From the NCBI GenBank assembly GCA_033763905.1, contig JANRJP010000102.1:24863-88862 (forward strand): a stretch of DNA of 64,000 nt. The letters are read 5' to 3'. The position numbers and the translations under genes are program-made. Shown here in pieces: positions 26,163 through 42,267 of this stretch. The DNA comes from Gemmatimonadaceae bacterium (GTDB lineage Bacteria; Gemmatimonadota; Gemmatimonadetes; Gemmatimonadales; Gemmatimonadaceae). The notes below the pieces were generated by a model. The model saw only the letters and a list, made by a program, of their open reading frames with translations, was not told the origin of the DNA and made no database searches. Position 1 is the first letter of the stretch, and the number at the start of each line of letters is the position of its first letter.

Positions 26163-26169
26163 GGGGTCG

Positions 26170-26793
26170 ATGGACGATACGACGCGATCACTGACTGCCG
26201 CCCAACTCGATGCGCTCCGCGAAGTCGCCAACATCGGCGCGGGGCACGCCGCGACGGCGCTGTCGCAGATGACGGGGCAGACGATCATGATCTCGGTGCC
26301 GCGGATCTTCATCGCGCCCCTCGAGGACGTCCCGCCGCACGTCAGCGGACCCGAGGAGCCGGTCGCCGCCGTCCTGATGCAGATGCTCGGCGACTTGACG
26401 GGACAGACCCTGCTCGTCTTCCCCGAGCCGACCGCGTTGCGACTGGCCGAGTTGATGCTGCGGCGGCCGCGCGGCAGTTCGCCCGGACTCGGCGAACTCG
26501 AGCAGTCGGCCATCAAGGAGGCCGGCAACATCCTGTCAGGGCAGTATATGAACGCGCTGTCCGACTTTATGGGGATGGTGCTGCTGCCGTCACCGCCCTC
26601 GATGGCGATCGATATGTCGGCGGCGGTGCTCGAGAGCACCTACCTGCAGTTCGGCAGTGATCGCGATATGGTCGTCTGCGTCGAGAGCGAGTTCATGATG
26701 AAGGAGCTGGGGGAAACCCTGCGAGGCTTCTTCCTGCTGCTCCCGGACGCACCCTCCCTGCAGGTGATGCTCAAGACGCTCAAGTTGGCCTGA
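26170..26793 (+). CDS. cheC: CheY-P phosphatase CheC
   Basis: ATG 26170 within ORF 26143..26793. Two ExxN active-site motifs (LREVANIGAGHAATALS and IKEAGNILSGQYMNALS), as in CheC-class proteins. Confidence 0.85.
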   Translation: MDDTTRSLTAAQLDALREVANIGAGHAATALSQMTGQTIMISVPRIFIAPLEDVPPHVSGPEEPVAAVLMQMLGDLTGQTLLVFPEPTALRLAELMLRRPRGSSPGLGELEQSAIKEAGNILSGQYMNALSDFMGMVLLPSPPSMAIDMSAAVLESTYLQFGSDRDMVVCVESEFMMKELGETLRGFFLLLPDAPSLQVMLKTLKLA

Positions 26794-26798: not shown

Positions 26799-29540
26799 GT
26801 GTCCACCGCCGTGCCTGTCGCTCTCTCGTCCGCTCGCGATCGCGACGCGCTGCGCAGCTTTGCGCGGCGCATCGATCCGTCGGATGCGGGCGCGCACAAC
26901 AACCTCGGCGTCCTGTACTACAACAAGGGCCTGCACGAAGAGGCGGTGGCGGCGTTCACGCGCGCGCTCGAGCTCGACCCCAAGATGGAAGTGGCGCGTC
27001 GGAATCTCGAAGTCGCCTACTTCCGCACGGGCTATTTCGATCGGCGCGTGGGCGAACTGCGCGAGCGCCTGCGCGCCGTGCCGACCGATCGGGAATCGCG
27101 GTTCGAGCTGGGCCGCGCGCACGCCTTCGCGGGCCAGTATCCGCAGGCGGTCAGCGAGTTCAAGACGCTGCTGCAGCACTTTCCGGATGACCTGGCGGCG
27201 ATCCTGCAGCTGGCGCTGGCCGAGAAGAGCTCGGGCGATCTCGAAGATGCCGCGCGCTGGCTGGAGCAGGCCGCGCGACTCGACCCCGACAGCCCGCTGG
27301 TGCACTTCTATCGCGGCGAAGTCGCCTACAACCGCGGGCTCAATGAAGACGCCCTCGCGGCGCTGGAACGGGCGATCGCGCTGAATCCGGAGCTGGCCGA
27401 CGCGCACTACCTGATGGCCTTCGTGCTCGGCGACATCGGACGACACGACGACGCCCGCGGCGCCACCAAGCGCGCGATTCAACTGAATCCGTCGCTGTCG
27501 CGCGCGCAGGCGAATCTGTCGCTCGACAAGTACAACGCGGCGCGGTACGAGGAACTCCTGCCCGGCGCCGCCGAGCGCAAGTCGCAGCAGTTGATGGCGG
27601 TGTCCGAGGAGGGCCAGCTGGCGCACTACTCGCTGGGCATCGCGTACCGGCAAAAGGGGTACTGGGCCGACGCGCTGCGCGAGTACCGGATGGCGCTTGA
27701 TCGGGGCGAGGATCGCGACCTCGTCGAGCAGGCGATGGCCGAAGTGCATCTGCTGCAGCGCGATGTGTCGGGCGCCGTCGCGCTGTACGATGTGCTGATC
27801 GGCCGTCGGCCCGAATCGCCGAAGCTCTGGAACGAGCGGGGCGTCGCGCTGCATCAGGACGGCCGATTCGCCGAGGCGCTCGAGAGCTACGATCGCGCCG
27901 TGGCCGCGGATGACGCGTACGTGCTCGCGTGGAACAACCTCGGCGTGGCCCGCTACCACGCCAATGACGTCGACGGCGCGGTCGATGCCTTCCGGCGTGC
28001 CTTGGATGTGGCGCCCACCTTTGCGAAGTCGCGGCTCAACCTCGCGCTGCTGCTGTTCAAGGGCAAGCGACTGCAGTTGGCGCTGGAAGCGTATCGCAAG
28101 GTGATCGAGGCCGAGCCCGAAGAGCCCACCGCGTGGAACGGCATTGGCCTCGTGCTGGCCGAACTCAAGCGCTTCGAGGAAGCGCGGGCCGCGTTTGCCC
28201 GAGCAATCCAGGCGCGGCCGACGTATGCCGAGGCGCACTACAACCTCAGCTTTACACTGTCGAACCTCGGCGACTTCGAGGGCGCGTTGCGCGAAACCAA
28301 GCGCGCGCTCGAACTCGACCCGTACTACGTCGCGCAGAAGTTCGAGTTGTCGATCGACCTGCAGCACGAGGAGCCGGATCTCTCGATCGCGCCGGATCTG
28401 GGCGGGGAGAAGCGGGTCAGCGGTGCCGTGGACGATTTCGCCTTCGATCCGGCACTGCTCGACGCGGTGTTCACGCGGCTGAACACGCCGTCGAGCCAGC
28501 CGATGACCGCCGTCCCGTCGGGTGAAGGCGAGCCGCTCTCGTACGCGCTGGCACGCGACTACCTGTCGAAGCGACTCGGTGATCGCGCGGCCGCGGAAGC
28601 CACGCGCATCTTGGCGCGGGGTGGTGCACAGGCGGAAGGCCTCACGATCGTCGCCGACTCCTACGCGCAGCGCTCGGCCTACGGCGAGGCGGTGGAACGC
28701 TATCGCGAAGCGCTGCGCGCCGACCTCGAGTACGTGCCGGCGCTCCGTGGCTTGACGTCCTCGTTGATCGCGATGGGCCGCGGTGCGGATGCGCGCCCCG
28801 TGGCCGAGCAGCTGGCGCAGCGCGTCCCCGACGATGTCGACGCGCTGGTGCTGGTGGCCGAGACGCGTTCGGCCGCGGGTGATCGGGTCGCGGCGTTGGC
28901 TGCGCTCGACGGCGCGCGCCGCCGTGCGCCGGCCCGGGCCGACATTCACAAGCGTATCGGCGATGTGCTGGAAGCCTCGGGCGACACCGACGGGGCGCTG
29001 GCGGTCTTTCGACTGGCGACGCAACTCGAACCGAGCTTTGCCGCCGTGCGGACGAGCCTGGGCCGTCTGCTGGCCCTGCGTGGCGACCGCGACGCGGCGG
29101 CGAGCGAGTTTTGCGCGGCGCTGGAGGCGGTGCCGACGTATGGTGCCGCGGCGATCGGACTGGCCGGCGTCCGGCGCGGGCAAGGGCGTGATCGCGAGGC
29201 GATGGACGTGCTGATCGCGCTCCTCGAGACGGATCCCTCGCACCTCGGGGCGCTGGTCGCCCTGGGCGAACTGTTGCTCGCGCAGGGGCGGAGCGCCGAT
29301 GCCGCGTTTGCGTTCCGCCGCGTGCTGACGTTCGACCCGGCACATCCCGCCGCGCTGTTCTACTGGGGCTCGCTGCTGGCGGCGCAGCATCGCTGGCGCG
29401 AGGCCCGCGAGACCTGGTCGCGCGCGGCGGCCGTGAATCCGACGGGCGAATGGGGACAGCGCGCCGCGCGCGAAGCGCGCAGCGCCGAGGATTTAGCGCA
29501 CGTGTACGCGACGGCGGGAGGTGGCGTCGATGCCCATTGA
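26799..29540 (+). CDS. 913-aa tetratricopeptide-repeat protein
   Basis: GTG 26799. TPR consensus repeats run along the whole length (e.g. AHNNLGVLYYNKGLHEEAVAAFTRALELDP, AWNNLGVARYHANDVDGAVDAFRRALDVAP, AHYNLSFTLSNLGDFEGALRETKRALELDP). No TM segment or signal peptide. Confidence 0.85.
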   Translation: MSTAVPVALSSARDRDALRSFARRIDPSDAGAHNNLGVLYYNKGLHEEAVAAFTRALELDPKMEVARRNLEVAYFRTGYFDRRVGELRERLRAVPTDRESRFELGRAHAFAGQYPQAVSEFKTLLQHFPDDLAAILQLALAEKSSGDLEDAARWLEQAARLDPDSPLVHFYRGEVAYNRGLNEDALAALERAIALNPELADAHYLMAFVLGDIGRHDDARGATKRAIQLNPSLSRAQANLSLDKYNAARYEELLPGAAERKSQQLMAVSEEGQLAHYSLGIAYRQKGYWADALREYRMALDRGEDRDLVEQAMAEVHLLQRDVSGAVALYDVLIGRRPESPKLWNERGVALHQDGRFAEALESYDRAVAADDAYVLAWNNLGVARYHANDVDGAVDAFRRALDVAPTFAKSRLNLALLLFKGKRLQLALEAYRKVIEAEPEEPTAWNGIGLVLAELKRFEEARAAFARAIQARPTYAEAHYNLSFTLSNLGDFEGALRETKRALELDPYYVAQKFELSIDLQHEEPDLSIAPDLGGEKRVSGAVDDFAFDPALLDAVFTRLNTPSSQPMTAVPSGEGEPLSYALARDYLSKRLGDRAAAEATRILARGGAQAEGLTIVADSYAQRSAYGEAVERYREALRADLEYVPALRGLTSSLIAMGRGADARPVAEQLAQRVPDDVDALVLVAETRSAAGDRVAALAALDGARRRAPARADIHKRIGDVLEASGDTDGALAVFRLATQLEPSFAAVRTSLGRLLALRGDRDAAASEFCAALEAVPTYGAAAIGLAGVRRGQGRDREAMDVLIALLETDPSHLGALVALGELLLAQGRSADAAFAFRRVLTFDPAHPAALFYWGSLLAAQHRWREARETWSRAAAVNPTGEWGQRAAREARSAEDLAHVYATAGGGVDAH

Positions 29541-30678
29541 AGGCCCGCTGCGCGAGCTTGGCATCCACGATGTCTTCCAGTTGCTCGACCTGAGCCGGAA
29601 GACCGGGATGCTGCACGTCGCGTCGGAACTCCGCGACAACGAAGGCGACGTCTGGTTCTCGCAGGGCAAGGTCGTGTGGGCGTCGATCCGCTCGAATCCG
29701 CATCCGCTTGGCGCGATGCTCGTGAAAAGCGGCAAGGTGTCCGAGGCCGATCTGCAACGCGCGCTGGCGGTGCAGGCGGATCGCGGCGACGGGCGGCGCT
29801 TTGGCGAGATTCTCGTCGATCTCGGCGTGTTGACCCAGCGCGAGCTCGAGAAAGTCGTGCGACTGCAAGTCGAAGAGGTGGTCTTCGAGCTGATGTCCTG
29901 GCGCGAGGGCTTCTTCTCGTTCTCCGATCGCGATGTGTCCGAAGTTCCGGCGGCTGCCGTGCTCCGCATCTCGACCGAGTCGCTGCTGATGGAAGGCGCG
30001 CGACGCATCGACGAATGGTCGCGCATTGCCGACAAAGTCCCGAATCTCGCGGTGATTCCCGTCATCGCGCCGGCGGACGACGGCCACCCCACCCAGCTCG
30101 ACCTGCTGCCACTCGAGTGGGAAATGCTGACGCTCATCGACGGCGAGACCGATCTGCGCGGCATTGCGACGACGCTCGCGCGAAGCGACTTCGACGTCGC
30201 CCGCATTGCCTACGGCCTCGTGTCGACCGGGGTGATCGAGCTGCGGCAGCCGGATCGCGTGAGTACCCGCGCGATGTTGCCAGTCGAGGATCCCACGGTG
30301 CACCTGGTCGCGTCGGCCGAGGCGCTGGCGCGCCGCGACGGACAGGCGGCGTTGTCGGCGGCGCGCGCGGCGCAGGCGGCGGACCCGACGTCGGCAATGG
30401 GCCGCGTTGCCGCGGCGCGTGCGCTGCGGTTCCTGGGCCGCGCCACTGAAGCGCACGAGGAGTTGCGCCGGGCCGCGGCGCTCGCGCCCAACGATGCGAC
30501 GGTCTCGTACGAACTCGCGTGGGCCGCTGCCGGCCGCGGCGAACTCGACGAAGCGCTCGAGCGCTGGGATCGCTGGATCCTGTCGCATCAGACCGACCCG
30601 TCCGCGGAGCGCGTTCGCGCGGCGATCGACACGACGCGGCGCCTCCGGGCGCTGCTGGAGGCCCACGCCGGTGTCTGA
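29530..30678 (+). CDS. PATAN (DUF4388) domain + TPR protein, copy 1
   Basis: ATG 29530 is preceded by GGAGG (29516-29520). MPIEGPLRELGIHDVFQLLDLSRKTGMLHVAS...VWFSQGKVVWA, helical insert PLGAMLVKSGKVSEADLQRALAVQ, EVVFELMSWREGFFSF, then C-terminal TPR-like repeats. Confidence 0.8.
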   Translation: MPIEGPLRELGIHDVFQLLDLSRKTGMLHVASELRDNEGDVWFSQGKVVWASIRSNPHPLGAMLVKSGKVSEADLQRALAVQADRGDGRRFGEILVDLGVLTQRELEKVVRLQVEEVVFELMSWREGFFSFSDRDVSEVPAAAVLRISTESLLMEGARRIDEWSRIADKVPNLAVIPVIAPADDGHPTQLDLLPLEWEMLTLIDGETDLRGIATTLARSDFDVARIAYGLVSTGVIELRQPDRVSTRAMLPVEDPTVHLVASAEALARRDGQAALSAARAAQAADPTSAMGRVAAARALRFLGRATEAHEELRRAAALAPNDATVSYELAWAAAGRGELDEALERWDRWILSHQTDPSAERVRAAIDTTRRLRALLEAHAGV

Positions 30679-31510
30679 CGAAATCGCCGCCCTCTCGGCC
30701 GCGCTCGCCGCCGACCCGAACAGCATCGTCTTCCTCGAACTAGGGGAGGCGTTGCGGCAGCGCGGGCAGATCGATGCCGCATTCACCATTGCCCGTCGCG
30801 GGCTGGAGCGACATCCGCACGCCGCGGATGCCCACGATCTGCTCGCGCGATTGCACGCAGATCGGGGCGATCTCGAGTCGGCATTCGACGAGTGGGATAT
30901 GGTCGCGCGTCTCTCGCCGGGTCACCCCGGGTCGCTCAAGGGGATGGGCTACGTGCGCTTCCAGCAGGGGCGACTCTCCGAGGCGGAGCAGTATCTGGCC
31001 GCGGCGGCAGCGGTGGATCCCGCCGATGACCGCAACCTGTCGGCGCTCGCCTACGTGCGCGCGCAGCGGGCGGCGTCGCAGGCCGGATCGTCGGTGCTGG
31101 CCAAGGATCCAACCGAGGTGGCCACGCCGCACGTGGCGGTGGACCCGGCGCGAGCACTGTTTGCCGACATCACGGCGGATGGGGCGGGCATCGTCATCCT
31201 TATCGGAGCCGACGGTCTGGTGCTGGCCGGGGAGTCGGTGACGCACGAAGGGCGCGATGTCGCGGCCGAAGTCGGAGCGGCGATGAGTGGCGTCGGCGAA
31301 GAAGCGAGTCGTTCGATGCGGCATCTCGGGCTCGGCCAGTGGACGAGCATCGTCTTCGAGACCGAGCGCGCGACGGTGGCGCTGTCGCCGGCGCCGGAGC
31401 AGGGGCTCGTACTCGTCGCGGCCGCGCGCACCTCGCCGCTCGGCTTCGTGCGCAAGATGCTCGAGCGGGCAGGGCAGGCCGCGGCGCGCTTCGTCGGAGG
31501 TGCTGGATGA
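30671..31510 (+). CDS. TPR + C-terminal Roadblock/LC7 domain fusion protein
   Basis: GTG 30671 in the frame of ORF 30407..31510, with an 8-nt overlap with the previous gene. N-terminal TPRs (IVFLELGEALRQRGQIDAAFTIARRGLERHP...). The C-terminus GIVILIGADGLVLAGES...WTSIVFETERATVALSP...LVLVAAARTSPLGFVRKML is Roadblock-like. Confidence 0.75.
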   Translation: MSDEIAALSAALAADPNSIVFLELGEALRQRGQIDAAFTIARRGLERHPHAADAHDLLARLHADRGDLESAFDEWDMVARLSPGHPGSLKGMGYVRFQQGRLSEAEQYLAAAAAVDPADDRNLSALAYVRAQRAASQAGSSVLAKDPTEVATPHVAVDPARALFADITADGAGIVILIGADGLVLAGESVTHEGRDVAAEVGAAMSGVGEEASRSMRHLGLGQWTSIVFETERATVALSPAPEQGLVLVAAARTSPLGFVRKMLERAGQAAARFVGGAG

Positions 31511-31851
31511 GCGCCTTTCAGAGCACGTTGGCCGCGCTGATCCGTCAGCGCGGCGTGACCGGCGCCCTCATCGTGAGTGAGCGCGACGGGATCGTGGTCG
31601 ATCAGGCCGTCCAGGTCGGGGTGCGCTCCGAAGTGGTCGCGGCGCTGGCGGCCTCGCTCTATCGGCGCGCGCGTCTGGCGGCGGAGGCCGCCGGGTTCGG
31701 CGATACGGGCTTCCTGCAACTCGATGCCGAGCAGGGGCGCGTGTGTGCGCTCGGCCGCGGGGATCTCGTGATCGTGGTGGTGACGGAGCCGGCGGCGAAC
31801 ATCGGGCTCGTGCGGGTCGAGATGATCAAGGGGCTGGAGGCGCTGCCGTGA
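31507..31851 (+). CDS. stand-alone Roadblock/LC7 domain protein (MglB paralogue)
   Basis: ATG 31507 (ATGA overlap), 114 aa. MSAFQSTLAALIRQRGVTGALIVSERDGIVVDQAV...GFLQLDAEQGRVCALGRGDLVIVVVTEPAANIGLVRVEM. Confidence 0.8.
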   Translation: MSAFQSTLAALIRQRGVTGALIVSERDGIVVDQAVQVGVRSEVVAALAASLYRRARLAAEAAGFGDTGFLQLDAEQGRVCALGRGDLVIVVVTEPAANIGLVRVEMIKGLEALP

Positions 31852-32318
31852 TCGTCAAGGTCACCGAAGCCTGGGCCGAGGCGCCGCTCAAGGCGTTCAT
31901 CGACGAGTCGCGCGTGCTGCTCGCGCTCCTGCTGCATCCGAGCGGACAGGTCGTGGGGCAGTCGGGGTTCTCGAAGGCGATGGACGTGATGAGTGCCTGT
32001 GCGCTGGCCGCGGCGATTCACGCCTCCTCGGCGGAGCTCGGGCGCCAACTCGACGGCAAGCCGTTCGGCGTGCTGCACTATGCCGGCCTGCAGAAGCAGC
32101 TGTTTCTCGCGCCGGTGGACACGCCGGCCGGCACCCTGCTGCTGCTTGCCGTCTTCGACGACGCCGCGTCGCTGGGACTGGTGCAGCTCTACTTCGGGGA
32201 GTTCCGGGGACGACTCGCGGCGGCGGCGCCGCGCGACGCCGATACCGGGCCCGTGCTCAACGAGCAGTTCGAGCGCGAACTCAACCGCAACCTCGCAACG
32301 CTCTTCGGGCGGGCCTGA
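31848..32318 (+). CDS. mglB: MglB-like Roadblock protein (GTPase-activating partner of MglA)
   Basis: GTG 31848 (GTGA overlap), 156 aa. LLALLLHPSGQVVGQSGFSKAMDVMSACALAAAIHASS...LLLLAVFDDAASLGLVQLYF resembles my memory of M. xanthus MglB (...VVFLVDKNGQLISSAG...VVLVVIFDNRTSLGLVRLRI). It sits directly upstream of mglA, as in the mglBA operon. Confidence 0.8.
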   Translation: MIVKVTEAWAEAPLKAFIDESRVLLALLLHPSGQVVGQSGFSKAMDVMSACALAAAIHASSAELGRQLDGKPFGVLHYAGLQKQLFLAPVDTPAGTLLLLAVFDDAASLGLVQLYFGEFRGRLAAAAPRDADTGPVLNEQFERELNRNLATLFGRA

Positions 32319-32321: not shown

Positions 32322-32924
32322 GTGTCCATCGTCAACTACGCAACGCGCGAAATCACCTGCAAGATCGTGTACTACGGACCGGGCCGGTCCGGGAAGACCA
32401 CGAATCTGCACTACATCTACCAGCAGGTGCCGTCCGATCGCAAAGGCACGATGGTCTCGCTGGCGACGCAGACCGACCGGACGCTGTTCTTCGACTTTCT
32501 CCCGCTCGACCTGGGCAGCATCTCGGGCTTCACCACGAAGTTCCAACTCTACACGGTGCCCGGGCAGGTGTACTACCAGACCACCCGCAAGCTGGTGCTG
32601 CAGGGGGCGGATGGCGTGGTCTTCGTCGCCGACTCGCAGCGGCGGCAGTTCGCCGAGACGGTCGAGTCGTTTCAGGACCTGCACGCGAACCTCGCGGAGC
32701 ACGGGCTCGATGCGCGGGCGGTGCCGCTGGTGATCCAGTACAACAAGCGCGATCTGCCGACCGAGCTCATTCATCCGGTGGCGGAGTTGCGCGACGCGAT
32801 CAACTTCCGCGACGTGCCCGATTTCGAAGCCGATGCCCTGCACGGCGTCGGGGTGTTCGAGACGCTGCGCGGCATCTCGGAGTTGGTGCTGCGCAAGCTC
32901 AGTACGGGGACGGATCGGCGATGA
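32322..32924 (+). CDS. mglA: Ras-like small GTPase MglA
   Basis: 200-aa ORF. MSIVNYATREITCKIVYYGPGRSGKTTNL (P-loop), TDRTLFFDFLPL, YTVPGQVYY, VFVADSQ, IQYNKRDLP. Near-colinear with M. xanthus MglA as I recall it. Confidence 0.93.
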   Translation: MSIVNYATREITCKIVYYGPGRSGKTTNLHYIYQQVPSDRKGTMVSLATQTDRTLFFDFLPLDLGSISGFTTKFQLYTVPGQVYYQTTRKLVLQGADGVVFVADSQRRQFAETVESFQDLHANLAEHGLDARAVPLVIQYNKRDLPTELIHPVAELRDAINFRDVPDFEADALHGVGVFETLRGISELVLRKLSTGTDRR

Positions 32925-34846
32925 GTGGCGTCAGCGGATTCCGCTTCGACAATTTCGTCGTCGGGCCGGCGAATCGACTGGCCGTCGCCGCCGCGCGCGC
33001 CGTCGCCGAGGGACCGGGCTCGGTGTACAACCCGCTGGTCATCTACGGCGGCTCGGGGCTGGGCAAGACGCATCTGCTCGGCGCCATCGGGGCGCACGCC
33101 ACGCACTTGTCGCCCGAGCTGCAGGTCGAGTCGCTGGCCACCGAGGAGCTGGTGCGCCGCCTCTCCGAGGCGATCGCCACCGGGCAACTCGATGCCTTGA
33201 CGGCGGCCTTGCAGCGCTCCGACATCCTGCTGCTGGACGACGTGCAGTTCCTCACCGGACATCCCGAGACACAGCAAGTGCTGCTGCGGCTGTTCAACCA
33301 GCTGCAGGGCGCCGGCAAGCAGATCGTGCTCACGAGCGACCGGCCGCCGCAGGACATTCCCGACGTCGACGAACGCCTGGTGACCCGGCTCGCGGGCGGG
33401 CTGACGGTCGATGTCGCGTCGCCAGACTTCGAGACGCGGGTGGCGATTCTCGACGCCAAGTGCCGCGAACGCAGCGTCACCTTGTCGCGGACGCAGCTCG
33501 AACAGCTCGCCCAGCGCGACGTCTCGAGTGTGCGTGAGTTGCAGGGGATGCTCAACCGGATGGTCGCCGAACGGGAGCTGCTCGATCCCGGCGCGACCGC
33601 GCGGCCGCTCACGCCCGCGGTGGCACCGCCGGCGTCGGTGCCCGTGCCGGCCGACGCGCAGTCGATGCGCCCCACCGGCGAGTTCGACAACTTCGTCTCG
33701 CGACTCACGGTGGCGGTGCAACGCCACGTCGAGCCGCCCTGGCGGACCAAGCTGACGGAAGCGGCGGCGCAGTATCGTCGCGAGGGCTGGGCGGTCGGCG
33801 TGATCGAGCGCGCGGCGGCGCTGCCGGATGCGCCGGACGTCGACGGACTGCTCGGGATGTTCGCGCAGGCCGTGGAGCACCTGCGCCACTTGGAACGGCA
33901 GGCGCTCGCGATCGACCCGACGCTCGGCAATCAGCCGTACTTCCGGGATGTCGAGCGCGTGCGCGAAGCCGAGACGATCGTCGATCGCCTGCTGGCCGCG
34001 ACCGCGCCGCCGCCGCAGCCGGATCGGCAGTACACCCGCGAATCGCTCGCCATCGGCAACGCCAATCAACTGGCGTTGCGCGCCGCCGATGTCGTCGTGG
34101 CCGAGCCGGCGACGCGTTATAACCCGTTGGTGATCGTCGGGGCGGCCGGGACCGGGAAGACGCATCTCCTGCACGCGCTCGCGAATGCGCTCGCGGATCC
34201 CGATGGCCCGCACCGGCGCGTGGCCTGCACCACGGCGAGCGCCTTCAGCGAGGAGCTCATTCTGGCCCTGCGTGACGATACGGTCGATCGCTGGCGGGCG
34301 CGCTACCGCTCGGCGGACGTGCTGTGCCTCGACGGCGTACACTTCCTCGCGGGCAAGCAGCGGTCGCAGGAAGAGCTCTTTCATCTCTTGAACGCGGCGA
34401 AGGAGTTCGGCAAGCAGGTCATCGTGACGAGCGAAGCCGCACCGCGGGATCTGCCGCGGCTCGAGGAGCGCATCCGCACGCGGCTGGAAGAAGGCCTGGT
34501 GGTGGAGCTGCAGCGCCCCGATGCCGCCCTGCGCGCCAAGCTCGCGACGCACTTCTTCCAGCTGCTGGGCGATGACCCGGAACCGGAAGTGATTGCGGCG
34601 ATTGCCGACAAGGAGGGGCGCTCGGCGGCGGAGCTGCGCGACATCGTGGCCAGGGTGCACCGCACCGCGACCGAGGCCGGTGTGAGTGTCGGTCCCGCAC
34701 TCGTCCATCGGGTGCTCGATCCCGGCCAGTCGTCGGCGCGCCCCGACCTGCCGACCGACGCGACGGATCGCTTCTTCGTGAATCCCGAGAAGGTGATCTG
34801 GGAGTGGCCCGATGCCGGGGCCCGGTTGATCGAGGAGCTGCGCTGA
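32921..34846 (+). CDS. tandem DnaA-like AAA+ ATPase (two DnaA domain-III modules; no domain I/II or DNA-binding domain IV)
   Basis: 641-aa ORF, ATGA-coupled to mglA. Module 1: [71 protein letters not shown]. Module 2: [66 protein letters not shown]. Confidence 0.85.
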   Translation: [641 protein letters not shown]

Positions 34847-36468
34847 TGGCGATCAAGGGCTCGCTCCGCGAAGCGTCGCTGCCGGACGTCTTGCAACTCC
34901 TGTCGATGGGCAAGAAGACGGGCTGCTTGAGCGTCTCGCACAAGAACAATTTCGGCTACATCTATTTCGACAAGGGACGCATCTCGTTCGCGGCGATCGT
35001 CAATCGTCGGGATCGGCTCGGTGACATCCTCGTCAAGAGCGGGGTGATCACGCACGAGCAGCTCGAAGAGACGATCGCGCTCCAGTCGAAGAGCCGCGAT
35101 ATGCGGCTGGGCGATCTGCTCGTCGAGCGCGGTCTGCTGAGTCGCGAAGCCTTGCACCAGCAGATCACCGTGCAGATCGAAGAGGCGGTGTACTTCCTCT
35201 TCACGTGGACGCAGGGGACGTTCTCGTTCGAGGCGGATGTGCTGCCCGATCTGCAGGACTTCCTCGTGTCGATCAATCCCGAGTCGCTGCTGCTCGAGGG
35301 CGCGCGCCGCGTCGACGAGTGGAGCGTCATCGAGAAGAAGATTCCGTCGTTCGACGTGGTGTTCGAGCTCGATCGGGCCAAGCTCGCCTTGGCGAACAAC
35401 GAACTGTCGGCGGAACAGAAGGCGATCGCGCAGCTGATCGACGGTCGGCGGGATGTGGCCGAGATCGTCGAAGAGTCGGGGATGATCGAGTTCGACGTGG
35501 GCAAGGCGATGTACGGCTTGCTCACGGCCGGCTTCCTGCATCGCGTGGGAAAGACCAAGCCGCAGCAGTCGGATCCGCAGAGCGAACAGAAACTGCAGGA
35601 GCACCGCAATCTCGGCATCGCGTTCTACCGGACGGCGATGTATGACGAAGCGCTCCGCGAGTTCCGCCGCGTGCACGAACTGCGGGTCGGCGATCCGGTG
35701 GGCCGGTTCTACACGGCGCTACTCTTCCTGCGACAGAACAAGACGCAGGAGGCCGTGAGCGTGCTCCAGGATCTCGCGCAACACGGCACGGCCAAGGCCT
35801 CGGTGTTCCACAACCTCTCGCTGGCGCTCGAGCGGCTCGGGCGCTCGGACGAGGCGCGGGCCGCGCTGCAGGAAGCGATGACCCGCGGCGGCGAGACCGA
35901 TGGGCTCGTGCATCTGTCGCGGGGGGTGTTGTTGCTCAAGGCGGGCGACCTGGCGGCCGCCGCCGCTGCGGTGGCAGAGGCGCGGCAGCACTTCGGGCGT
36001 CGGCCGCCGCCGGCGGTGTGGTTCCACTACGCCGGCCTGATCGATGCGCTTCGCGGTGACGTCGAGTCGGCCGAGACGGTGCTGCGCGAAGGGACCGAGG
36101 TGCATACGCACGCTGCCGTGCTCCATCTCAACCTCGCCGCAGTGCTCGAACGGCAAGGGAAGTACGAGCTCGCCTTGCAGTCGGCCGATCAGGCCGTGCT
36201 CGACGACCCGCAGCTCCCGCAGGCGCACAAGTCGCAGGGCGATCTCCACTACCGCGCGGGGCGCTTCGACGACGCGTGGGAGTCCTACAGCCGCGCCCTG
36301 CGGCTCGCGCCGGCGCTTGGCGCCGATTTGCACGTCAAGCTCGGCAATCTGCGGTTCAAGCGGCAGGAGACCCGCGATGCCGCCGCGCATTGGGAACGCG
36401 CGTTGCAGCTGGACCCGGAGAACGCGACCGCACGCGCGAATCTCGACGCGCTGGCCAAGGCCCGGTGA
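34846..36468 (+). CDS. PATAN (DUF4388) domain + TPR protein, copy 2
   Basis: ATG 34846 (TGATG junction) within ORF 34804..36468. MAIKGSLREASLPDVLQLLSMGKKTGCLSVSH...IYFDKGRISFA, RLGDILVKSGVITHEQLEETIALQ, EAVYFLFTWTQGTFSFE, then TPRs (e.g. AHKSQGDLHYRAGRFDDAWESYSRALRLAP). Confidence 0.8.
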   Translation: MAIKGSLREASLPDVLQLLSMGKKTGCLSVSHKNNFGYIYFDKGRISFAAIVNRRDRLGDILVKSGVITHEQLEETIALQSKSRDMRLGDLLVERGLLSREALHQQITVQIEEAVYFLFTWTQGTFSFEADVLPDLQDFLVSINPESLLLEGARRVDEWSVIEKKIPSFDVVFELDRAKLALANNELSAEQKAIAQLIDGRRDVAEIVEESGMIEFDVGKAMYGLLTAGFLHRVGKTKPQQSDPQSEQKLQEHRNLGIAFYRTAMYDEALREFRRVHELRVGDPVGRFYTALLFLRQNKTQEAVSVLQDLAQHGTAKASVFHNLSLALERLGRSDEARAALQEAMTRGGETDGLVHLSRGVLLLKAGDLAAAAAAVAEARQHFGRRPPPAVWFHYAGLIDALRGDVESAETVLREGTEVHTHAAVLHLNLAAVLERQGKYELALQSADQAVLDDPQLPQAHKSQGDLHYRAGRFDDAWESYSRALRLAPALGADLHVKLGNLRFKRQETRDAAAHWERALQLDPENATARANLDALAKAR

Positions 36469-37280
36469 GCCTCGTGACCGCCCACGACGACGGTTCGCTC
36501 GACGCCTTGGCGGCGAAGATCGCGCGAGATCGCGGCTTCGCGGCCGGCTACTACAAGGATACCTGTCTGCGGCGGCGCATCGCCGTGCGGATGCGCGCGA
36601 ATGGCGTGCACGACTATGCGCAGTACGCGGCGCTGCTCGACACCCGCGCCGATGAGTACGACAAGTTGCTCGACGCGCTGACGATCAACGTCACGCGGCT
36701 GTTCCGGAATCACGAGGCGTGGGAGGCGGTGGAGCGCCTCGTGTGGCCGTCGCTCTTCGCCGGCGTCGCGCCGGTGACGGTCTGGAGCGCGGGCTGCGCG
36801 ACCGGCGAAGAGCCCGTGACGATCGTGATGAGCGCGCTGGCGTCGGGCGCGACGCCGCGGTCGGCCGACCGGCTCGTGGTGCACGCGACGGACATCGATC
36901 CGCGCGCACTGGCGCGCGCGCGGGCCGGCGTGTTTCCGCACAGCGCGTTCGCCGAGACGCCGGGCGAGTGGCGCGATCGCTGGTTCACCGGCCCGGCCCG
37001 CGATACCGCCACGCCCGCGCTGCTTGCGCCGATTCGCTTCGCGCAGCGCGATCTGCTTCAGGATCCGCCGCCCGCGCGAGGGCTGCAGCTCGTGGTCTGC
37101 CGCAACGTGATGATCTACTTCGACCGCGAGCCGCAGGATCAGTTGCTGCGGACCTTCCACGATGCGCTCGCACCGGGAGGCTTCTTGCTGCTCGGCAAGG
37201 TGGAGTCGCTGCTCGGCCCCGCGCGTGCGCTGTTCGAGGTGGTCGACTCTCGCGAACGGCTGTTCCGGAGGGCGGCGTGA
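36465..37280 (+). CDS. cheR: chemotaxis protein methyltransferase CheR
   Basis: GTG 36465 (GTGA overlap) in the frame of ORF 36276..37280. YKDTCLRRRIAVRM, TRLFRNHEAW, SAM-binding VWSAGCATGEEP, VCRNVMIYFD. Confidence 0.9.
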   Translation: MSLVTAHDDGSLDALAAKIARDRGFAAGYYKDTCLRRRIAVRMRANGVHDYAQYAALLDTRADEYDKLLDALTINVTRLFRNHEAWEAVERLVWPSLFAGVAPVTVWSAGCATGEEPVTIVMSALASGATPRSADRLVVHATDIDPRALARARAGVFPHSAFAETPGEWRDRWFTGPARDTATPALLAPIRFAQRDLLQDPPPARGLQLVVCRNVMIYFDREPQDQLLRTFHDALAPGGFLLLGKVESLLGPARALFEVVDSRERLFRRAA

Positions 37281-37771
37281 CGGTGACCGACTCGCTCACG
37301 GTGACCGTCCGCGTGGCCGATGCCGCCGCCGCCCGTGCCGATGTCACCCTGGTGACGCTGGGGCTGGGTTCCTGCGTCGCGGTGCTGTTGCACAATCCGG
37401 TCGTCGGGGCCGGTGCGCTGGCGCATATCCTGCTGCCGGATGAGTCGCTGTCCCGCGACACCTCGAATCCGGCGAAGTTCGCGACGACGGCCATCCCGCT
37501 GATTCTCGACCGGATGGCGAGTTACGGGCCGCTCCGGGACGTGACGGCAAAGCTCGTGGGCGGGGCGCGGATGTTCGCGCAGCTGCTTCCCCAGGGCGGC
37601 GTCAATATGGGCGAGCGGAATCTGGTGGCGGCGCGGCAGACCCTGCGCGGCGCCGGCATTCCGATCGCCGCAGAAGACACCGGCGGCGAGTACGGGCGCA
37701 GCGTGTATTTCCACGTCGGCACCGGCCGGGTCACGGTGCGGTCGATCAAGGCCGGTGAGCGCACCCTCTAG
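37277..37771 (+). CDS. cheD: chemoreceptor glutamine deamidase CheD
   Basis: GTG 37277 (GTGA overlap) in the frame of ORF 36719..37771. Catalytic context TLGLGSCVAVLLH and LAHILLP, plus GERNLVAARQTLRGAGIPI. Confidence 0.88.
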   Translation: MTVTDSLTVTVRVADAAAARADVTLVTLGLGSCVAVLLHNPVVGAGALAHILLPDESLSRDTSNPAKFATTAIPLILDRMASYGPLRDVTAKLVGGARMFAQLLPQGGVNMGERNLVAARQTLRGAGIPIAAEDTGGEYGRSVYFHVGTGRVTVRSIKAGERTL

Positions 37772-38828
37772 CGCCGCGCGCACCGTGCTCGTCGTCGACG
37801 ACTCCGCGTTTATGCGCAAGGTCGTCAGCGATCTCGTGGGCGCGTTGCCGGGCTTTCGGGTGATCGGCACGGCGCGAGACGGGCAACACGCGCTGGAGCA
37901 GGTGCACACGCTCGACCCCGACATCGTCACCCTCGATGTCGAGATGCCGGAGCTCGACGGGCTGCAGGCGTTGGGGTACATCATGAGCGAGACCCCGCGG
38001 CCGGTCGTGATGCTGTCGGCGGCCGACGGGGCCGATGGCGCGCTCACGCTGCGCGCGCTCGAACTCGGTGCCGTCGATTTCGTCCGCAAGCCGTCCGGCG
38101 CGATCTCGCTGGATCTCACACGCGTGCAGGATCGGCTGCATCAGGCATTGCTGGCCGCGGCCGAGGCGAATGTGGCGGGCGTGCGAGCCGTGGCTCGCTT
38201 GCCCCGGGTCTCGGCGGGCGTCGGCCTGTCGCCGCATACGGCGCGCAAGCTCGTCGTGATTGCGTGCTCGACCGGGGGGCCGCGGGCGCTGGTCGAGGTC
38301 ATTCCGGCGCTGCCGGTGACGCTCGATGCTGCGGTGCTGGTCGTGCAGCATATGCCCAAGGGCTTCACGCGCTCCCTCGCGGAGCGCCTCGATCACGCGA
38401 GTCGCTGTACCGTGCGTGAGGCCGCAGACGGCGCCGCCCTGCAGCGCGGGCTCGTGTATGTCGCCCCGGGCGGGCGGCATCTGGTGGTGGGCGAGCGTCC
38501 CGAGGGGCCCTGCTGCTCGATCGACGACTCGCCGCCGGTCTGGGGGGTGCGACCGGCCGCCGACGTCCTCTTTCGGAGCGCCGCCCGGGCTTACGGCGCG
38601 TCGGTCGTCGGCGTGGTGCTCACCGGGATGGGGCGGGACGGTGCCGAAGGCTTGTCGCGCATCCGCGAGGCGGGCGGCCGCGCCATCGTGCAAGACCGCG
38701 AAACAAGCACGATCTACGGAATGCCCCAGGCGGCGTTGCAGATTGCCGGCGCCGATCAGGTCGTGCCGTTGAGCGGCGTCGCGACGGCGATTCGCGAACT
38801 GGTGGCCACTGTGCCGGAGGCGGCGTGA
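37755..38828 (+). CDS. cheB: protein-glutamate methylesterase/response regulator CheB
   Basis: 357-aa ORF. Receiver VLVVDDSAFMRK...DIVTLDVEMPELDG. Esterase motifs IACSTGGPRAL, VVQHMPKGFT and TGMGRDGAEG. Confidence 0.93.
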   Translation: MSAPSSAARTVLVVDDSAFMRKVVSDLVGALPGFRVIGTARDGQHALEQVHTLDPDIVTLDVEMPELDGLQALGYIMSETPRPVVMLSAADGADGALTLRALELGAVDFVRKPSGAISLDLTRVQDRLHQALLAAAEANVAGVRAVARLPRVSAGVGLSPHTARKLVVIACSTGGPRALVEVIPALPVTLDAAVLVVQHMPKGFTRSLAERLDHASRCTVREAADGAALQRGLVYVAPGGRHLVVGERPEGPCCSIDDSPPVWGVRPAADVLFRSAARAYGASVVGVVLTGMGRDGAEGLSRIREAGGRAIVQDRETSTIYGMPQAALQIAGADQVVPLSGVATAIRELVATVPEAA

Positions 38829-39427
38829 GCACCCCGCGTCCACCGGAGGCGATCCCGATGCGGATGCCGACGCCAACGCAGTTGGCGGCGATCCTCAATC
38901 CCGATGCACCGCCCGCGCCGCCGCCGGCCATCCTCGAACCCGAGTTGCCCCCCGTCGCGCGCGCGCCGCTCAAGTCGTTACGGGCCCGCTTGGCCGATCG
39001 GGAGTCGGTGCCGATGCTCGTGCTGGAGGCGGGCAGCGAGCGGTACGTGGCGTCGCTGGCCGACGTGCTCGAAGCCGTCGACGCACCCGACATCCATCCG
39101 CTCCCGCGGATGTCCGGCGCGACCCGTGGGGTGCTACCGCTGCGCGGCGCCCTCGTGACGGTCCTCGATCCGTCTCGGGTGCTCGGGCACCCCGCCGTCC
39201 GTGGCGACGCGGCGCTCGTCGTGTCGCACGCCGGCGGCCGCTTGGCCGTGCTGGTCGACGACGTCCTCGATGCGATGACCTTGGAGCCCTCCGCCGTACG
39301 CACCGTGCCCTCGGCGCTCGCCGCCGACCGGGTGTTGATTGGCGCCGTCCCGCACGACGGTCGCCTCGCCGGCATTCTTGATCTGGCGGCGTTGCTCGAC
39401 GCCGCCCTTGCCCTCGCTGACCGATGA
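38825..39427 (+). CDS. CheW-like domain protein with Pro/Ala-rich N-terminal extension
   Basis: 200-aa ORF (GTGA overlap). About 60 aa of low-complexity P/A-rich sequence, then MLVLEAGSERYVASLADVLEAVD...VLPLRGALVTVLDPSRVLG, which is typical of CheW folds. Confidence 0.75.
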   Translation: MSTPRPPEAIPMRMPTPTQLAAILNPDAPPAPPPAILEPELPPVARAPLKSLRARLADRESVPMLVLEAGSERYVASLADVLEAVDAPDIHPLPRMSGATRGVLPLRGALVTVLDPSRVLGHPAVRGDAALVVSHAGGRLAVLVDDVLDAMTLEPSAVRTVPSALAADRVLIGAVPHDGRLAGILDLAALLDAALALADR

Positions 39428-39942
39428 CCGCCGCTCCGCACCATCAGCAACTCGTGGCCTTCCGGCTCGGGAATGACCAGTTCGCTGCCGACGTCTTCAG
39501 CGTCGAGCGGGTGCTGCGCTACGTGCCACCGCGCGCGATCCCCAATGTGCCGGCCTGGATCGCGGGAGTGGTCGACTATCAGCAGCGGGTCGTGCCGGTG
39601 ATCGATCTGCGGGCCCGCTTCGAGCTGCCGCCCGTTCCGCCGAAACCCGAGACTCGCATCCTCGTGCTGCACGTCGATGGGGAGTGGATTGGCGCCATCG
39701 TCGATGCCGTCACCGAAGTCGCGAGCGTCGAGGCCGGGGCCGTCCAGCCACCGCCCCCGCTGTTCCGCGGGCTGTCGGCCGCCTTCCTCAAGGGCGTCGT
39801 CCGTCGCGGCGACGCGCTGATCGTGGTGCTCGACACCGCGCGCCTGCTGTCGACCACCGAACGCCTGGTGCTCGAGCAGGCGGGCAGTGCGCCGAGTCGT
39901 GAGACCGATCTTCCCACCGCTGGAGCACCAGCCGATGCCTGA
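39424..39942 (+). CDS. cheW: chemotaxis coupling protein CheW
   Basis: 172-aa ORF (ATGA overlap). QLVAFRLGNDQFAADVFSVERVLRYVPP...IAGVVDYQQRVVPVIDLRARF...ILVLHVDGEWIGAIVDAVTEV. Confidence 0.85.
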   Translation: MTAAPHHQQLVAFRLGNDQFAADVFSVERVLRYVPPRAIPNVPAWIAGVVDYQQRVVPVIDLRARFELPPVPPKPETRILVLHVDGEWIGAIVDAVTEVASVEAGAVQPPPPLFRGLSAAFLKGVVRRGDALIVVLDTARLLSTTERLVLEQAGSAPSRETDLPTAGAPADA

Positions 39943-40786
39943 CTCCCGTTCCCTCAGCTTCAAGGATCGCTACGCCGCGATCGACGCACGGCTCGACGCC
40001 GGGCTCGCCGCGAGCGAGCGCGACGCGACCAAGGCCGAGATCATCGCGCTGTTCAAGCAGGTCGAACAGGAGATCACCGACCTGAGCGCCCTCAAGGACC
40101 AGATCAAGGCCCTCGTCGACAAGTGGAAGGCGGCGGCGCCGTCGATGGCCCCGCAGTTCACGGGCGAAAAGCCGGTCGTCCATCAGGATCACATCGGGGC
40201 GTCGACCTTCATCGAGAAGGGCTGGAGCCGCATCTCGCTGGGCGACTATCCTGCCGCCGAGGAAGCCCTCGTGAAGGCGCTGGAGCTCTCGCCGAACGAG
40301 ACCCAGGCGACGTCGCTGCTGGGCTGGGCGCAGATGCTGCAGGAGAAGTACGACGACGCCCTGATGAACTTCCAGAAGGTGCTGATCAAGGAGCCGGCGA
40401 ACTCCTTGGCACGGATCAACGTCGGCTACATCTGCCTCAAGAAGCGGATTTTTGGGGAGGCCATCGAGCATCTCTCGCGCGCGATCCGGCTCGACAACGA
40501 CAAGAAGGCCACGCTCTACGCGCACTTCTATCTCGGGCTGGTGTATCTGGAACGGGAGATGTCGGAGGACGCGATCACCTTCTTCCGCAAGACGCTGGCG
40601 CTCGGGCCGAATCTGCTCGAGGCCTACTACGAACTGGGGCGCGCCTACTGGCAGTTGGGCGACCGGGCGCAGGGGTTGCAGGCGTGGAAGGACGGCTTCG
40701 CGGCGAACAAGTTCAATCCGTGGGGCAAGAAGTGCGGCGAACTCGTGAAGGTGGTCGAGGCGGGCGGGGAACCGTCGATCGCGTGA
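39935..40786 (+). CDS. coiled-coil + TPR protein
   Basis: ATG 39935 within ORF 39887..40786, with an 8-nt overlap with cheW. TPRs such as ATSLLGWAQMLQEKYDDALMNFQKVLIKEP and AYYELGRAYWQLGDRAQGLQAWKDGF. Noticeably more Lys/Ile/Asn-rich than its neighbours. Confidence 0.8.
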   Translation: MPDSRSLSFKDRYAAIDARLDAGLAASERDATKAEIIALFKQVEQEITDLSALKDQIKALVDKWKAAAPSMAPQFTGEKPVVHQDHIGASTFIEKGWSRISLGDYPAAEEALVKALELSPNETQATSLLGWAQMLQEKYDDALMNFQKVLIKEPANSLARINVGYICLKKRIFGEAIEHLSRAIRLDNDKKATLYAHFYLGLVYLEREMSEDAITFFRKTLALGPNLLEAYYELGRAYWQLGDRAQGLQAWKDGFAANKFNPWGKKCGELVKVVEAGGEPSIA

Positions 40787-41805: not shown

Positions 41806-41814
41806 CTTTCAGGA

Positions 41815-41991
41815 ATGCCCGACACTCCGACTCCGACCCGCTCGTCGCGCCCCCTGCTGTGGTGGGGTGCTGCGGCCCTGACGCTCCTTGCCGGCTACGC
41901 CGATCTGATCCGCGGTGGCGAAACCATCTCCGCGATTCTGCTGGTGATCGGGTACTGCGTGCTCGTTCCGGCCGCGATTCTGAAGGTCTGA
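41815..41991 (+). CDS. 58-aa two-TM small membrane protein (below ORF-track cutoff)
   Basis: Hand translation gives MPDTPTPTRSSRPLLWWGAAALTLLAGYADLIRGGETISAILLVIGYCVLVPAAILKV-stop. GC-rich third positions. The stop-to-start junction TAGCTTTCAGGAATG has the same form as the junction before ftsY (and resembles that before ftsH). A hairpin follows the stop. Confidence 0.45.
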   Translation: MPDTPTPTRSSRPLLWWGAAALTLLAGYADLIRGGETISAILLVIGYCVLVPAAILKV

Positions 41992-42007
41992 CGCGAGCTG
42001 GCCGGCC

Positions 42008-42034
42008 TGCCTCGGCAACAATCCGGCCGAGGCA
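42008..42034 (+). terminator. candidate terminator hairpin (9-bp stem)
   Basis: tgcctcggc (42008-42016), loop aacaatccg, gccgaggca (42026-42034), followed by tccgttattgcttg (moderately T-rich). It lies 17 nt after the small ORF stop. Confidence 0.35.
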
Positions 42035-42123
42035 TCCGTTATTGCTTGCGTCGCCCTTGCTGGGCGGCGAAATTTCTCGGCTCCGTGTCTCGGTTGGCTG
42101 CAGGGCGGGCCGAGGCTGGCGCC

Positions 42124-42197: not shown

Positions 42198-42267
42198 TCG
42201 GTGGGAACAGGACCCCGCGCCGCGCGTGTGGGGTAGGTCAGTCAACGTCTTGATGGAGTGCGCGCTG

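Follow-up and report, generated by a model that had tools for sequence, protein, structure and literature searches.

What would a protein that carries the ATPase core of DnaA, the replication initiator, in duplicate and lacks the rest of DnaA be doing directly behind the gene for a polarity GTPase? The question arises from a 64,000-nucleotide (nt) stretch of a Gemmatimonadaceae genome (assembly GCA_033763905.1, contig JANRJP010000102.1, positions 24,863 to 88,862 of the forward strand; here called the window), in which an open reading frame (ORF) of 641 amino acids (aa), hereafter the ATPase, lies between mglA and a gene for a PATAN-domain protein. The frame is open, and its start codon (ATG, 32921) runs into the stop (TGA, 32922-32924) of the GTPase frame before it as ATGA, just as an earlier reading made from the letters alone (the sequence-only reading) had it. 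At the other end its TGA shares bases with the start codon of the following gene (ATG, 34846), as TGATG. The gene is translationally coupled to both neighbours, inside a che operon. The exact protein is present in NCBI, from a Gemmatimonadaceae metagenome-assembled genome, under the name 'DnaA/Hda family protein'. The domain itself is known; what is undescribed is its tandem architecture, the accessory domain and motif that come with it, and the polarity and chemosensory context. The parts of the gene are these:

32921-34846, + strand: tandem DnaA-domain-III ATPase gene; open ORF of 641 aa with two Pfam Bac_DnaA matches, exact protein in NCBI
32939-33586, + strand: module 1, a complete DnaA domain III, aa 7-222 (TIGR00362 250 bits; PDB 8bv3, E 6e-50)
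33047-33070, + strand: Walker A of module 1, GGSGLGKT; lysine invariant in a 26-sequence alignment
33587-33682, + strand: disordered, length-variable spacer, about aa 223-255
33683-34000, + strand: family-specific five-helix linker domain, aa 255-360
34034-34720, + strand: module 2, DnaA domain III, aa 372-600 (TIGR00362 188 bits; PDB 8bv3, E 8e-42)
34139-34162, + strand: Walker A of module 2, GAAGTGKT; K413 invariant among Gemmatimonadaceae sequences
34322-34342, + strand: degenerate Walker B of module 2, LCLDGVH; DD in most orthologues
34778-34843, + strand: C-terminal short linear motif, last 22 aa

The two DnaA-type modules and the parts around them

Pfam Bac_DnaA (PF00308) matches the ATPase twice (E 1.5e-96), and the NCBIfam DnaA model TIGR00362 aligns with it only over about profile positions 105-335, which is domain III. 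Scored singly, module 1 (aa 1-230) gives 250 bits with the DnaA model, 92 with the Hda model TIGR03420 and 59 with the IstB model NF038214, and module 2 (aa 365-603) gives 188, 86 and 52 respectively (model cut-offs 343.9, 194.8 and 200 bits); models for DnaI and DnaC score below IstB. The best PDB sequence match of both modules is 8BV3, the B. subtilis DnaA domain III. Hda structures appear there only at E 2e-8 for module 1, and none is among the matches listed for module 2. An AlphaFold2 model of the full chain, built on 26 orthologues (mean predicted local distance difference test score, pLDDT, 80.5), superposes on 8BV3 in Foldseek with a template modelling (TM) score of 0.92 and a root mean square deviation (rmsd) of 2.0 Å, and on T. 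maritima domain III with a TM score of 0.91; p97, Rix7 and NSF-type proteins are lower matches, with loose two-module alignments at 20-27 Å rmsd and 14-15% identity. The initiator-specific helical region between Walker A and Walker B aligns gap-free with B. subtilis DnaA in both modules.

Because per-module profile hidden Markov model (HMM) scores, PDB matches and superposition all favour DnaA, both modules are, judged from sequence and modelled fold, derived from DnaA itself and not from Hda, DnaC or IstB. An origin from Hda or IstB was ruled out by the per-module scores and the PDB searches, where the margin for DnaA is wide. Nor does the protein belong to either family as these are defined: both modules lie well below the Hda cut-off and there are two of them in 641 aa instead of one of ~230 aa, and for IstB/DnaC 52-59 bits stand against a cut-off of 200, with no transposase present and with fixed synteny. 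The sequence-only reading, which saw two DnaA domain-III modules in one ORF and proposed profile and structure comparisons with DnaA, Hda and IstB, is borne out by Pfam, TIGR00362, the PDB matches and Foldseek, and the comparisons place the modules with DnaA rather than Hda. Its end point for module 2, about aa 560 with a tail of ~85 aa, has to be moved: the lid helices at 535-599 belong to the module, which ends at ~600 and leaves a tail of ~40 aa.

The two modules are 37% identical to each other across Gemmatimonadaceae orthologues and 39-45% identical to domain III of B. subtilis and E. coli DnaA. A rough neighbour-joining tree, computed without support values, puts the sequences of module 1 and of module 2 into separate clades. 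A recent internal duplication was ruled out on these two grounds, and from the separate clades it follows that the duplication is old and predates the spread of the family.

Module 1 has Walker A GGSGLGKT, Walker B LLDDVQ, sensor 1 TSDRPP, sensor 2 VRELQ and a box VII. In the alignment of 26 Gemmatimonadaceae sequences its Walker A lysine, Walker B DD, the SDR of sensor 1, R152/R156 and R205 are invariant or nearly so. The same alignment has K413 and R517/R519/R521 of module 2 invariant, and the window protein keeps an intact P-loop (GAAGTGKT) and arginine-finger box (RIRTRLEEG) there. However, in the window and its two closest relatives, the orthologues P0004 and P0008, module 2 has DG for the Walker B DD of most orthologues, SEAAP or SEAPP for SDRPP at sensor 1, and AAE or AAD for VRE at sensor 2, the arginine being replaced. 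The degeneracy is restricted to this subclade; most orthologues are fully canonical at these positions. The motifs quoted in the sequence-only reading and both of its Walker A coordinates (33047-33070 and 34139-34162) are all correct. Its pairing of an active with a degenerate module holds for the window sequence but not as a trait of the family, in which the degenerate module varies by lineage. E. coli DnaA requires D236, the D269 region and R334 to hydrolyse ATP or to bind nucleotide tightly, and as their equivalents are lost, module 2 of the window probably binds nucleotide without hydrolysing it.

A wider motif survey took in 72 family members. In some distant lineages sensor 1 and the arginine finger of module 1 are degraded (the module-1 finger is degenerate in about ten lineages), and one subfamily (P0145, P0155, P0167, P0171, P0177, P0201, P0202, P0205 and P0216) has lost the P-loop of module 2 and kept its DDRLRSRFEGG box. 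The most constant elements, which almost never change, are the P-loop and Walker B of module 1 and the arginine finger of module 2. This is the pattern expected if the module-2 finger completes the module-1 ATP site.

Between the modules, the ~150-aa linker was first read as unrelated to DnaA. It does lack any DnaA match, but it is not uniform: a disordered spacer (pLDDT <50, with many indels in the alignment) is followed by a five-helix domain, predicted with a pLDDT of 84-92 as part of the full chain and of 88 by itself. The consensus of this domain is EFxSFLSD...W..R..EAIxYW.GEGYRT..LERAL...FRDPERV.EAE, and it is conserved in distant family members. Tail residues 603-635 are disordered (pLDDT <50) and a terminal helix is predicted at 630-640; the motif at the very end, with family consensus EKxVWxWP....RxIEE, is found in nearly all members, distant ones included. 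The window protein, with module 1, five-helix linker, module 2, disordered tail, terminal motif and an adjacent PATAN gene, is a typical member except that its module 2 is degenerate.

Linker and tail scanned alone against Pfam gave no match even at E 10, and a Foldseek search of the PDB with the linker-domain model (pLDDT 88) gave nothing at E <= 0.001, the best hit being at E 5. Of 42 Pfam matches for the whole protein, the 25 best do not include domain IV (PF08299, Bac_DnaA_C). Domain I (PF11638, DnaA_N) has no match on the ATPase, yet is present in the true DnaAs retrieved for comparison. The AAA+ fold begins at residue 7, and there is therefore no domain I/II and no room for an Hda-type clamp-binding motif; a beta-clamp motif of that kind (QL[SP]LPL-like) is not in the ATPase sequence, which lacks an N-terminal extension. 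A cryptic DnaA-box-binding domain in linker or tail was ruled out by the Pfam scan at E 10 and by Foldseek of the linker model. The absence of domains I, II and IV, as first read from the letters, stands, and so does that of a DnaA-box-binding helix-turn-helix, whose detection the sequence-only reading had said would count against it.

Neighbours, spread and other architectures

The ATPase gene is one of a long series on the + strand, from CheW through the trailing TPR genes, mostly with overlaps of 1-4 nt:

23397-26793, + strand: upstream che block; CheW 23397-23879, CheY within 23783-24238, CheA 24258-26162, CheC/CheX 26143-26793
26799-30678, + strand: 913-aa TPR protein (26799-29540), then PATAN-TPR protein (29521-30678)
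30671-32318, + strand: three Roadblock/LC7 (MglB-like) genes; TPR-Roadblock 30671-31510, Roadblock 31507-31851, weak Roadblock-like 31848-32318
32322-32924, + strand: mglA, Ras-like polarity GTPase (PDB 6h17, M. xanthus MglA, E 2.7e-74)
34846-36468, + strand: double-PATAN (DUF4388) and TPR protein; Pfam DUF4388 twice plus TPR
36465-39942, + strand: downstream che block; CheR 36465-37280, CheD 37277-37771, CheB 37755-38828, CheW 38825-39427, CheW 39424-39942
39887-43989, + strand: trailing conserved genes; TPR protein, Peptidase_MA_2-like protein, 647-aa TPR protein

Junctions in the downstream che block are overlaps of a few bases throughout. The GTPase has YTVPGQ (TxxGQ in place of DxxGQ), and its PDB matches 6h17 and 5ymx span residues 1-196; by these sequence marks it is a true MglA. 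Pfam Robl_LC7 matches the three Roadblock genes at E 5e-7, 2e-6 and 0.13. The last value belongs to the 156-aa protein at 31848-32318 (+), between the Roadblock gene and mglA, which is conserved and may be a third, divergent MglB/MglC-like subunit. The operon contains three CheW genes, besides the CheW domain in CheA, and no gene for a methyl-accepting chemotaxis protein (MCP).

More than 120 full-length homologues were found at 47-93% identity, and all of those with a name are Gemmatimonad-. A scan for the linker-domain pattern, taking one genome per GTDB species, gave at least 145 relatives; it uses one narrow peptide pattern, so that distant phyla could be missed. Of the 145, 80 were kept: 78 bear a Gemmatimonad- label, one is called simply 'bacterium' and one 'Planctomycetota'. 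This last one is a contig of 3,159 bp (JADLHO010000107.1, locus L015) with mglA (84% identical), the ATPase and PATAN-TPR, and its label is probably a binning error.

Synteny was surveyed by tblastn of 15 window proteins against 82 loci, those loci being counted as informative that extend far enough. The mglA gene is immediately upstream of the ATPase in all 78 informative Gemmatimonadaceae loci, with 80-87% identity for full-length matches and 70-71% for three end-truncated copies, and the double-PATAN-TPR gene is immediately downstream in 79 of 79. The order of the Roadblock and che genes is the same across the loci, all three Roadblock genes being conserved. From the mglA stop to the nearest in-frame ATPase start the distance is -4 to +8 nt in 78 of 80 loci, and from the ATPase stop to the PATAN start -1 or 0 nt in 60 of 83 (a measure that takes the nearest start codon and is somewhat generous). 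The sequence-only reading would have been weakened by a lack of linkage to mglA in related genomes; the linkage held in the 78 loci, and two deeper lineages of Gemmatimonadota have it as well.

A profile search of 1.84 billion representative proteins, the results of which come without taxonomy, recovered many more full-length relatives of ~630-700 aa, down to ~355 bits, which share the linker and the C-terminal motif. For the family as a whole, the names recovered besides Gemmatimonad- were one 'Candidatus Cloacimonetes 4572_55' and the 'Planctomycetota' label of the L015 contig. The gene contexts of deeper relatives are as follows:

L085 (P0139): TPR, PATAN, Roadblock, MglA (70% identity), ATPase and PATAN-TPR kept; no che genes
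L090 (P0315, Gemmatimonadota): MglA (71%) and CheR/B/W kept
L083/L084 (P0223) and L087 (P0171): only rluD, ATPase, double-PATAN-TPR, (TPR) and Peptidase_MA
L086 (P0152): CheW-CheY-CheA-...-CheC-TPR-PATAN-ATPase; no mglA; relatives named Candidatus Cloacimonetes 4572_55 and Gemmatimonadetes
L089 (P0157): only a large TPR homologue upstream of the ATPase

No mglA is present within the sequence available for L083/L084, L086 and L087, though a PATAN(-TPR) gene adjoins the ATPase in each. Such a gene adjoins it in L083-L087 and L090, even where mglA, che or both are missing, and in L083, L084, L085, L087 and L090 the double-PATAN-TPR gene is directly downstream, as in the window. The most constant partner of the ATPase is a PATAN and/or TPR protein, not mglA, and MglA/Roadblock and Che have the look of layers added in some of the lineages. 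The trailing TPR and Peptidase_MA genes also accompany the ATPase and PATAN-TPR in lineages without che and mglA (contexts L083, L085 and L087). DivIVA and bactofilin genes are near the locus in L087 and L089.

The position in the chromosome is also kept. In the window, L085, L087 and L002 the PATAN/ATPase cluster is always between ileS-dksA-like-(lspA)-rluD and the dcw cluster (rsmH, ftsI, mur, ftsW, ftsA, ftsZ), the flanks in the window being 17703-23300 and 44083-60010. This holds even for lineages without che and mglA.

Two other architectures tie DnaA-III modules to signalling and motility independently of this operon. In P0216 (738 aa), whose module 2 lacks a P-loop, a C-terminal receiver domain (PF00072, E 1.5e-11) replaces the peptide motif. 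At L088:4309-15923 (GCA_030620115.1, JAUXFG010000024.1) there are three fusions of MshEN with DnaA domain III, of 983, 398 and 1,990 aa, located between pilD and pilB-pilT-pilC-pilS-pilT-pilR; the 1,990-aa one has two DnaA-III modules with ~1,200 aa of coiled coil between them. About 15 clusters are related to these fusions, and one member of ~400 aa is named Candidatus Fermentibacteria. No literature discussing MshEN together with DnaA was found.

A possible function and its rivals

With DnaA domain III (B. subtilis 8BV3/8BTG, A. aeolicus 2HCB/3R8F, T. maritima 2Z4R) the ATPase shares the ATPase fold (TM 0.91-0.92), Walker A and B, sensor 1, the box VII arginine finger and sensor 2, and the region of the helical insert aligns gap-free. 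Unlike DnaA it has two copies per chain, a private linker domain and a C-terminal peptide; domains I/II (self-interaction and helicase recruitment) and IV (the DnaA-box helix-turn-helix) are missing; and it is encoded in a polarity/che operon, not at dnaN/oriC. Hda and HdaA, of the regulatory inactivation of DnaA, are likewise DnaA-family AAA+ modules without a DNA-binding domain. However, the one module of Hda measures ~230 aa and carries a clamp-binding motif at its N-terminus, whereas the ATPase has two modules and no N-terminal extension, and its modules are 22% identical to E. coli Hda. DnaC/DnaI and IS21 IstB are initiator-clade AAA+ proteins without sequence-specific DNA binding that assemble ATP-dependently via arginine fingers; their models score weakly here, and no helicase-binding or transposase partner accompanies the ATPase. 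Type II AAA+ proteins (p97/Cdc48, NSF, Rix7) also carry two modules per polypeptide, often one catalytic and one structural or regulatory, but they are of the classic clade and form closed hexameric rings, and the likeness is topological only. Initiator-clade AAA+ proteins typically form open spirals.

On the side of polarity, the Myxococcus MglA/MglB module (RomR/RomX, SgmX, FrzS, Frz) is the nearest known counterpart in that the window has MglA, Roadblock, TPR and a Che-type pathway together, though the Myxococcus genes are scattered (PMC4316618) and those of the window form one operon. No AAA+ ATPase in a described MglA system was found in the literature. PATAN domains, as in PatA and the Synechocystis PixG/PixH/TaxP-type regulators, are encoded on both sides of the ATPase, but the proteins bearing them have TPR repeats in place of receiver domains and come paired with the ATPase. 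Linkage of PATAN with MglB and with MglA genes was noted earlier (Makarova 2006, as PMC4316618 reports it). Wuichet & Sogaard-Andersen 2014 (PMC4316618) described occasional PATAN genes near Group 1 mglA, and their Table S2 lists GAU_1409 of G. aurantiaca T-27 as 'PATAN>MglA>-PATAN>' with the middle gene unnamed; this '-' gene is presumably a tandem DnaA-III ATPase. The MshEN-DnaA-III proteins of Fermentibacteria-like genomes resemble the family in having DnaA-III modules without domain IV in a motility context (one of them with two modules), but differ in their N-terminal MshEN (a PilB-type, c-di-GMP-binding family), in lacking the Gemmatimonadota linker domain and C-terminal motif, and in having no PATAN or MglA genes nearby. 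No description was found in the literature of a DnaA-like protein with MglA, PATAN or MshEN, and the claim of the sequence-only reading that such an ATPase in a small-GTPase/Che operon is undescribed agrees with this.

In DnaA, Orc/Cdc6, DnaC and other initiator-clade AAA+ proteins, ATP closes a head-to-tail interface via an arginine finger. The reading favoured here, for which we put the chances a little above even on what its sequence and setting suggest, is that the ATPase is a DnaA-derived, ATP-gated pseudo-dimer that would act as an assembly or switch protein of a PATAN/TPR polarity module under MglA/Che control. ATP binding would close a head-to-tail interface in which the arginine finger of one module completes the ATP site of the other, most likely with the finger of module 2 reaching the site of module 1, in the same chain or in another. 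The protein could then alternate between two states, open with ADP and closed or oligomeric with ATP, a hydrolysing module 1 being paired in the window subclade with a putatively binding-only module 2. The linker domain and the acidic, Trp-rich C-terminal peptide on its flexible tail may dock the neighbouring TPR/PATAN proteins. TPR domains clamp C-terminal peptides such as EEVD, and it is by analogy with this that the TPR/PATAN neighbours are proposed as receptors of the peptide.

In Gemmatimonadaceae the platform would be placed under the control of MglA-GTP and the MglB-like Roadblock proteins, with CheA/CheY input, and its assembly may position, or reposition, a motility or envelope machine at the pole. 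The most plausible candidate for such a machine is the type IV pilus, whose motor is bound by PATAN response regulators in Synechocystis (bioRxiv 10.1101/2021.06.11.447907) and among whose genes the MshEN fusions are encoded. The sequence-only reading had proposed a nucleotide-gated scaffold for MglA. The linkage to mglA holds, but as several lineages pair the ATPase with PATAN(-TPR) without mglA, the scaffold idea should centre on PATAN/TPR instead.

Several observations weigh against this proposal. The predicted TM score (pTM) of the AlphaFold2 full model is 0.45, so that the relative placement of the modules is not confidently predicted. In L089 neither PATAN nor mglA adjoins the ATPase. 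There are no pil or gliding genes in the 64-kb window to supply an output machine, and a che set that includes CheC, CheD and a CheA bearing a P2 domain would suit flagella just as well. In module 2, counterparts of the DnaA contacts to single-stranded DNA are kept, with Ile at the V211 position and K479/R481 at K243/R245 (GKER), R481 being invariant; a pure protein-protein switch would not need them.

These last residues lead to the first of the other explanations, that the ATPase is a nucleoid- or single-stranded-DNA-bound scaffold whose ATP-dependent filaments on nucleic acid would position cytoplasmic chemosensory or polarity complexes. ParA-like PpfA and nucleoid-bound FrzCD are analogues of such an arrangement. 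The K243/R245 equivalents are kept in module 2 across Gemmatimonadaceae, together with the hydrophobic residue at the V211 position, and an operon with three CheW genes and no MCP gene would suit it. However, module 1 lacks the hydrophobic H-motif residue and, in the window clade (GHPE), also the B-motif arginine, and in many distant members the contact residues decay, whereas the linker domain and C-terminal motif persist. We regard this explanation as unlikely. Equally improbable, in our estimate, is a role in replication control, by which a DnaA-III mimic would co-assemble with, cap or stimulate hydrolysis in DnaA filaments (in the manner of Hda or an anti-DnaA) and couple chemosensory or polarity state to initiation. 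It draws on the closeness of the modules to B. subtilis and E. coli domain III, which is as great as their closeness to each other; on arginine fingers that are invariant in Gemmatimonadaceae (that of module 1 failing in the distant lineages mentioned) and the gap-free initiator-specific helical region; on the B-motif and H-motif equivalents of module 2; on the place of the locus, always just upstream of the dcw division cluster; and on a cluster of DnaA-box-like 9-mers 20 kb downstream of the ATPase. Against it are the lack of an N-terminal extension for a clamp-binding motif, Hda scores far under the cut-offs, the lack of dnaA and dnaN among ~35 window ORFs scanned (3109-3972, 4822-5676 and 10647-11279 being among the few left out) and of a GC-skew switch, and the company kept by the family: its constant neighbours PATAN/TPR, MglA/Roadblock and Che, and the MshEN or receiver of related architectures, are none of them replication factors. 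The suggestion in the sequence-only reading that the protein couples replication state to polarity found no direct support, there being no clamp-binding N-terminus and no dnaA or dnaN found nearby.

Another explanation keeps the partners and changes the purpose. The ancestral role of the ATPase with PATAN-TPR, TPR and Peptidase_MA would be cell-pole or division-site organisation, not motility, with MglA and Che added later. The core-only lineages L083, L084 and L087, the fixed location between ileS/rluD and rsmH-ftsI...ftsZ, and the DivIVA and bactofilin genes in L087 and L089 are consistent with it; but gene order may be mere inheritance, the MshEN fusions are located in a pilus cluster, and PATAN domains are known as pilus-motor partners, and we do not think it probable. 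Far less probable still is that the ATPase is the chromosomal initiator DnaA or a decaying duplicate of it. The whole protein does score 433 bits with TIGR00362, above the cut-off, and many members bear the JGI name 'chromosomal replication initiator protein'. The score, however, is summed from two partial matches, each of them below the cut-off by itself; the protein has none of domains I, II and IV; and decay is ruled out by the length, motifs and synteny that at least 145 species have in common. Domain content and conservation together refute the idea of a real or decaying DnaA. Database names for the family are 'DnaA/Hda family protein', 'AAA family ATPase' and 'chromosomal replication initiator protein', of which the last is wrong for its members. 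JGI/IMG labels many of them 'chromosomal replication initiator protein DnaA', and this naming and the summed score are a systematic mis-annotation risk for Gemmatimonadota, in which such labels can mislead origin prediction.

The proposal of an ATP-gated assembly protein can be carried further, to a more speculative form that we hold only tentatively and think rather doubtful. The DnaA self-assembly engine, duplicated and stripped of DNA recognition, would be a third nucleotide switch beside GTP (MglA) and phosphorelay (Che); ATP-timed pseudo-dimers or short filaments would recruit PATAN/TPR adaptors via the C-terminal peptide and set polarity or pilus placement; and with the MshEN fusions the family might form an unrecognised non-replicative branch of DnaA in FCB-group phyla.

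The known roles of DnaA-type modules lie in replication control (DnaA, Hda) and, for more distant kin, in helicase loading and transposition. If the favoured reading is right, a conserved, phylum-wide two-module family in a small-GTPase/PATAN/chemosensory operon would be the first case of the DnaA core being used outside replication, and it would add an ATPase layer to bacterial polarity, which has so far been understood in terms of circuits of GTPase, GTPase-activating protein and response regulator. The family is also a natural series of active and degenerate module pairs for the study of initiator-clade AAA+ interfaces. Direct testing is possible, as the cultured Gemmatimonas aurantiaca T-27 appears to carry the gene beside GAU_1409.

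Other features of the window

The sole MCP gene seen in the window is at 7158-9206 (-), 14 kb upstream of the operon and on the opposite strand, and encodes 4HB_MCP, HAMP and MCPsignal domains. Two long ORFs with high G+C at third codon positions, 5546-7207 (+) and 21794-23278 (-), have no Pfam match at E 1e-5. The second is probably a shadow ORF, synteny predicting rluD/lspA there on the + strand.

The window has a G+C content of ~69% and its GC skew runs without reversal. A location at the replication origin was ruled out, with no dnaA or dnaN among the scanned ORFs and no GC-skew switch. There are nevertheless six exact copies of the DnaA-box-like 9-mer TTTTCCACA, at 54621+, 54999+, 55364+, 55473-, 56398+ and 58679-, where 0.32 are expected, and none of 100 shuffles reaches six. 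The sites (54621-58687) flank the murG/murC spacer at 55177-55275, the most AT-rich stretch of the window (GC 0.445 against ~0.69). Because there is no GC-skew switch and the flanking genes point the same way, the cluster is unlikely to be oriC. It may instead be a promoter regulated by DnaA, a site of DnaA titration, or the site of some other factor in the dcw cluster.

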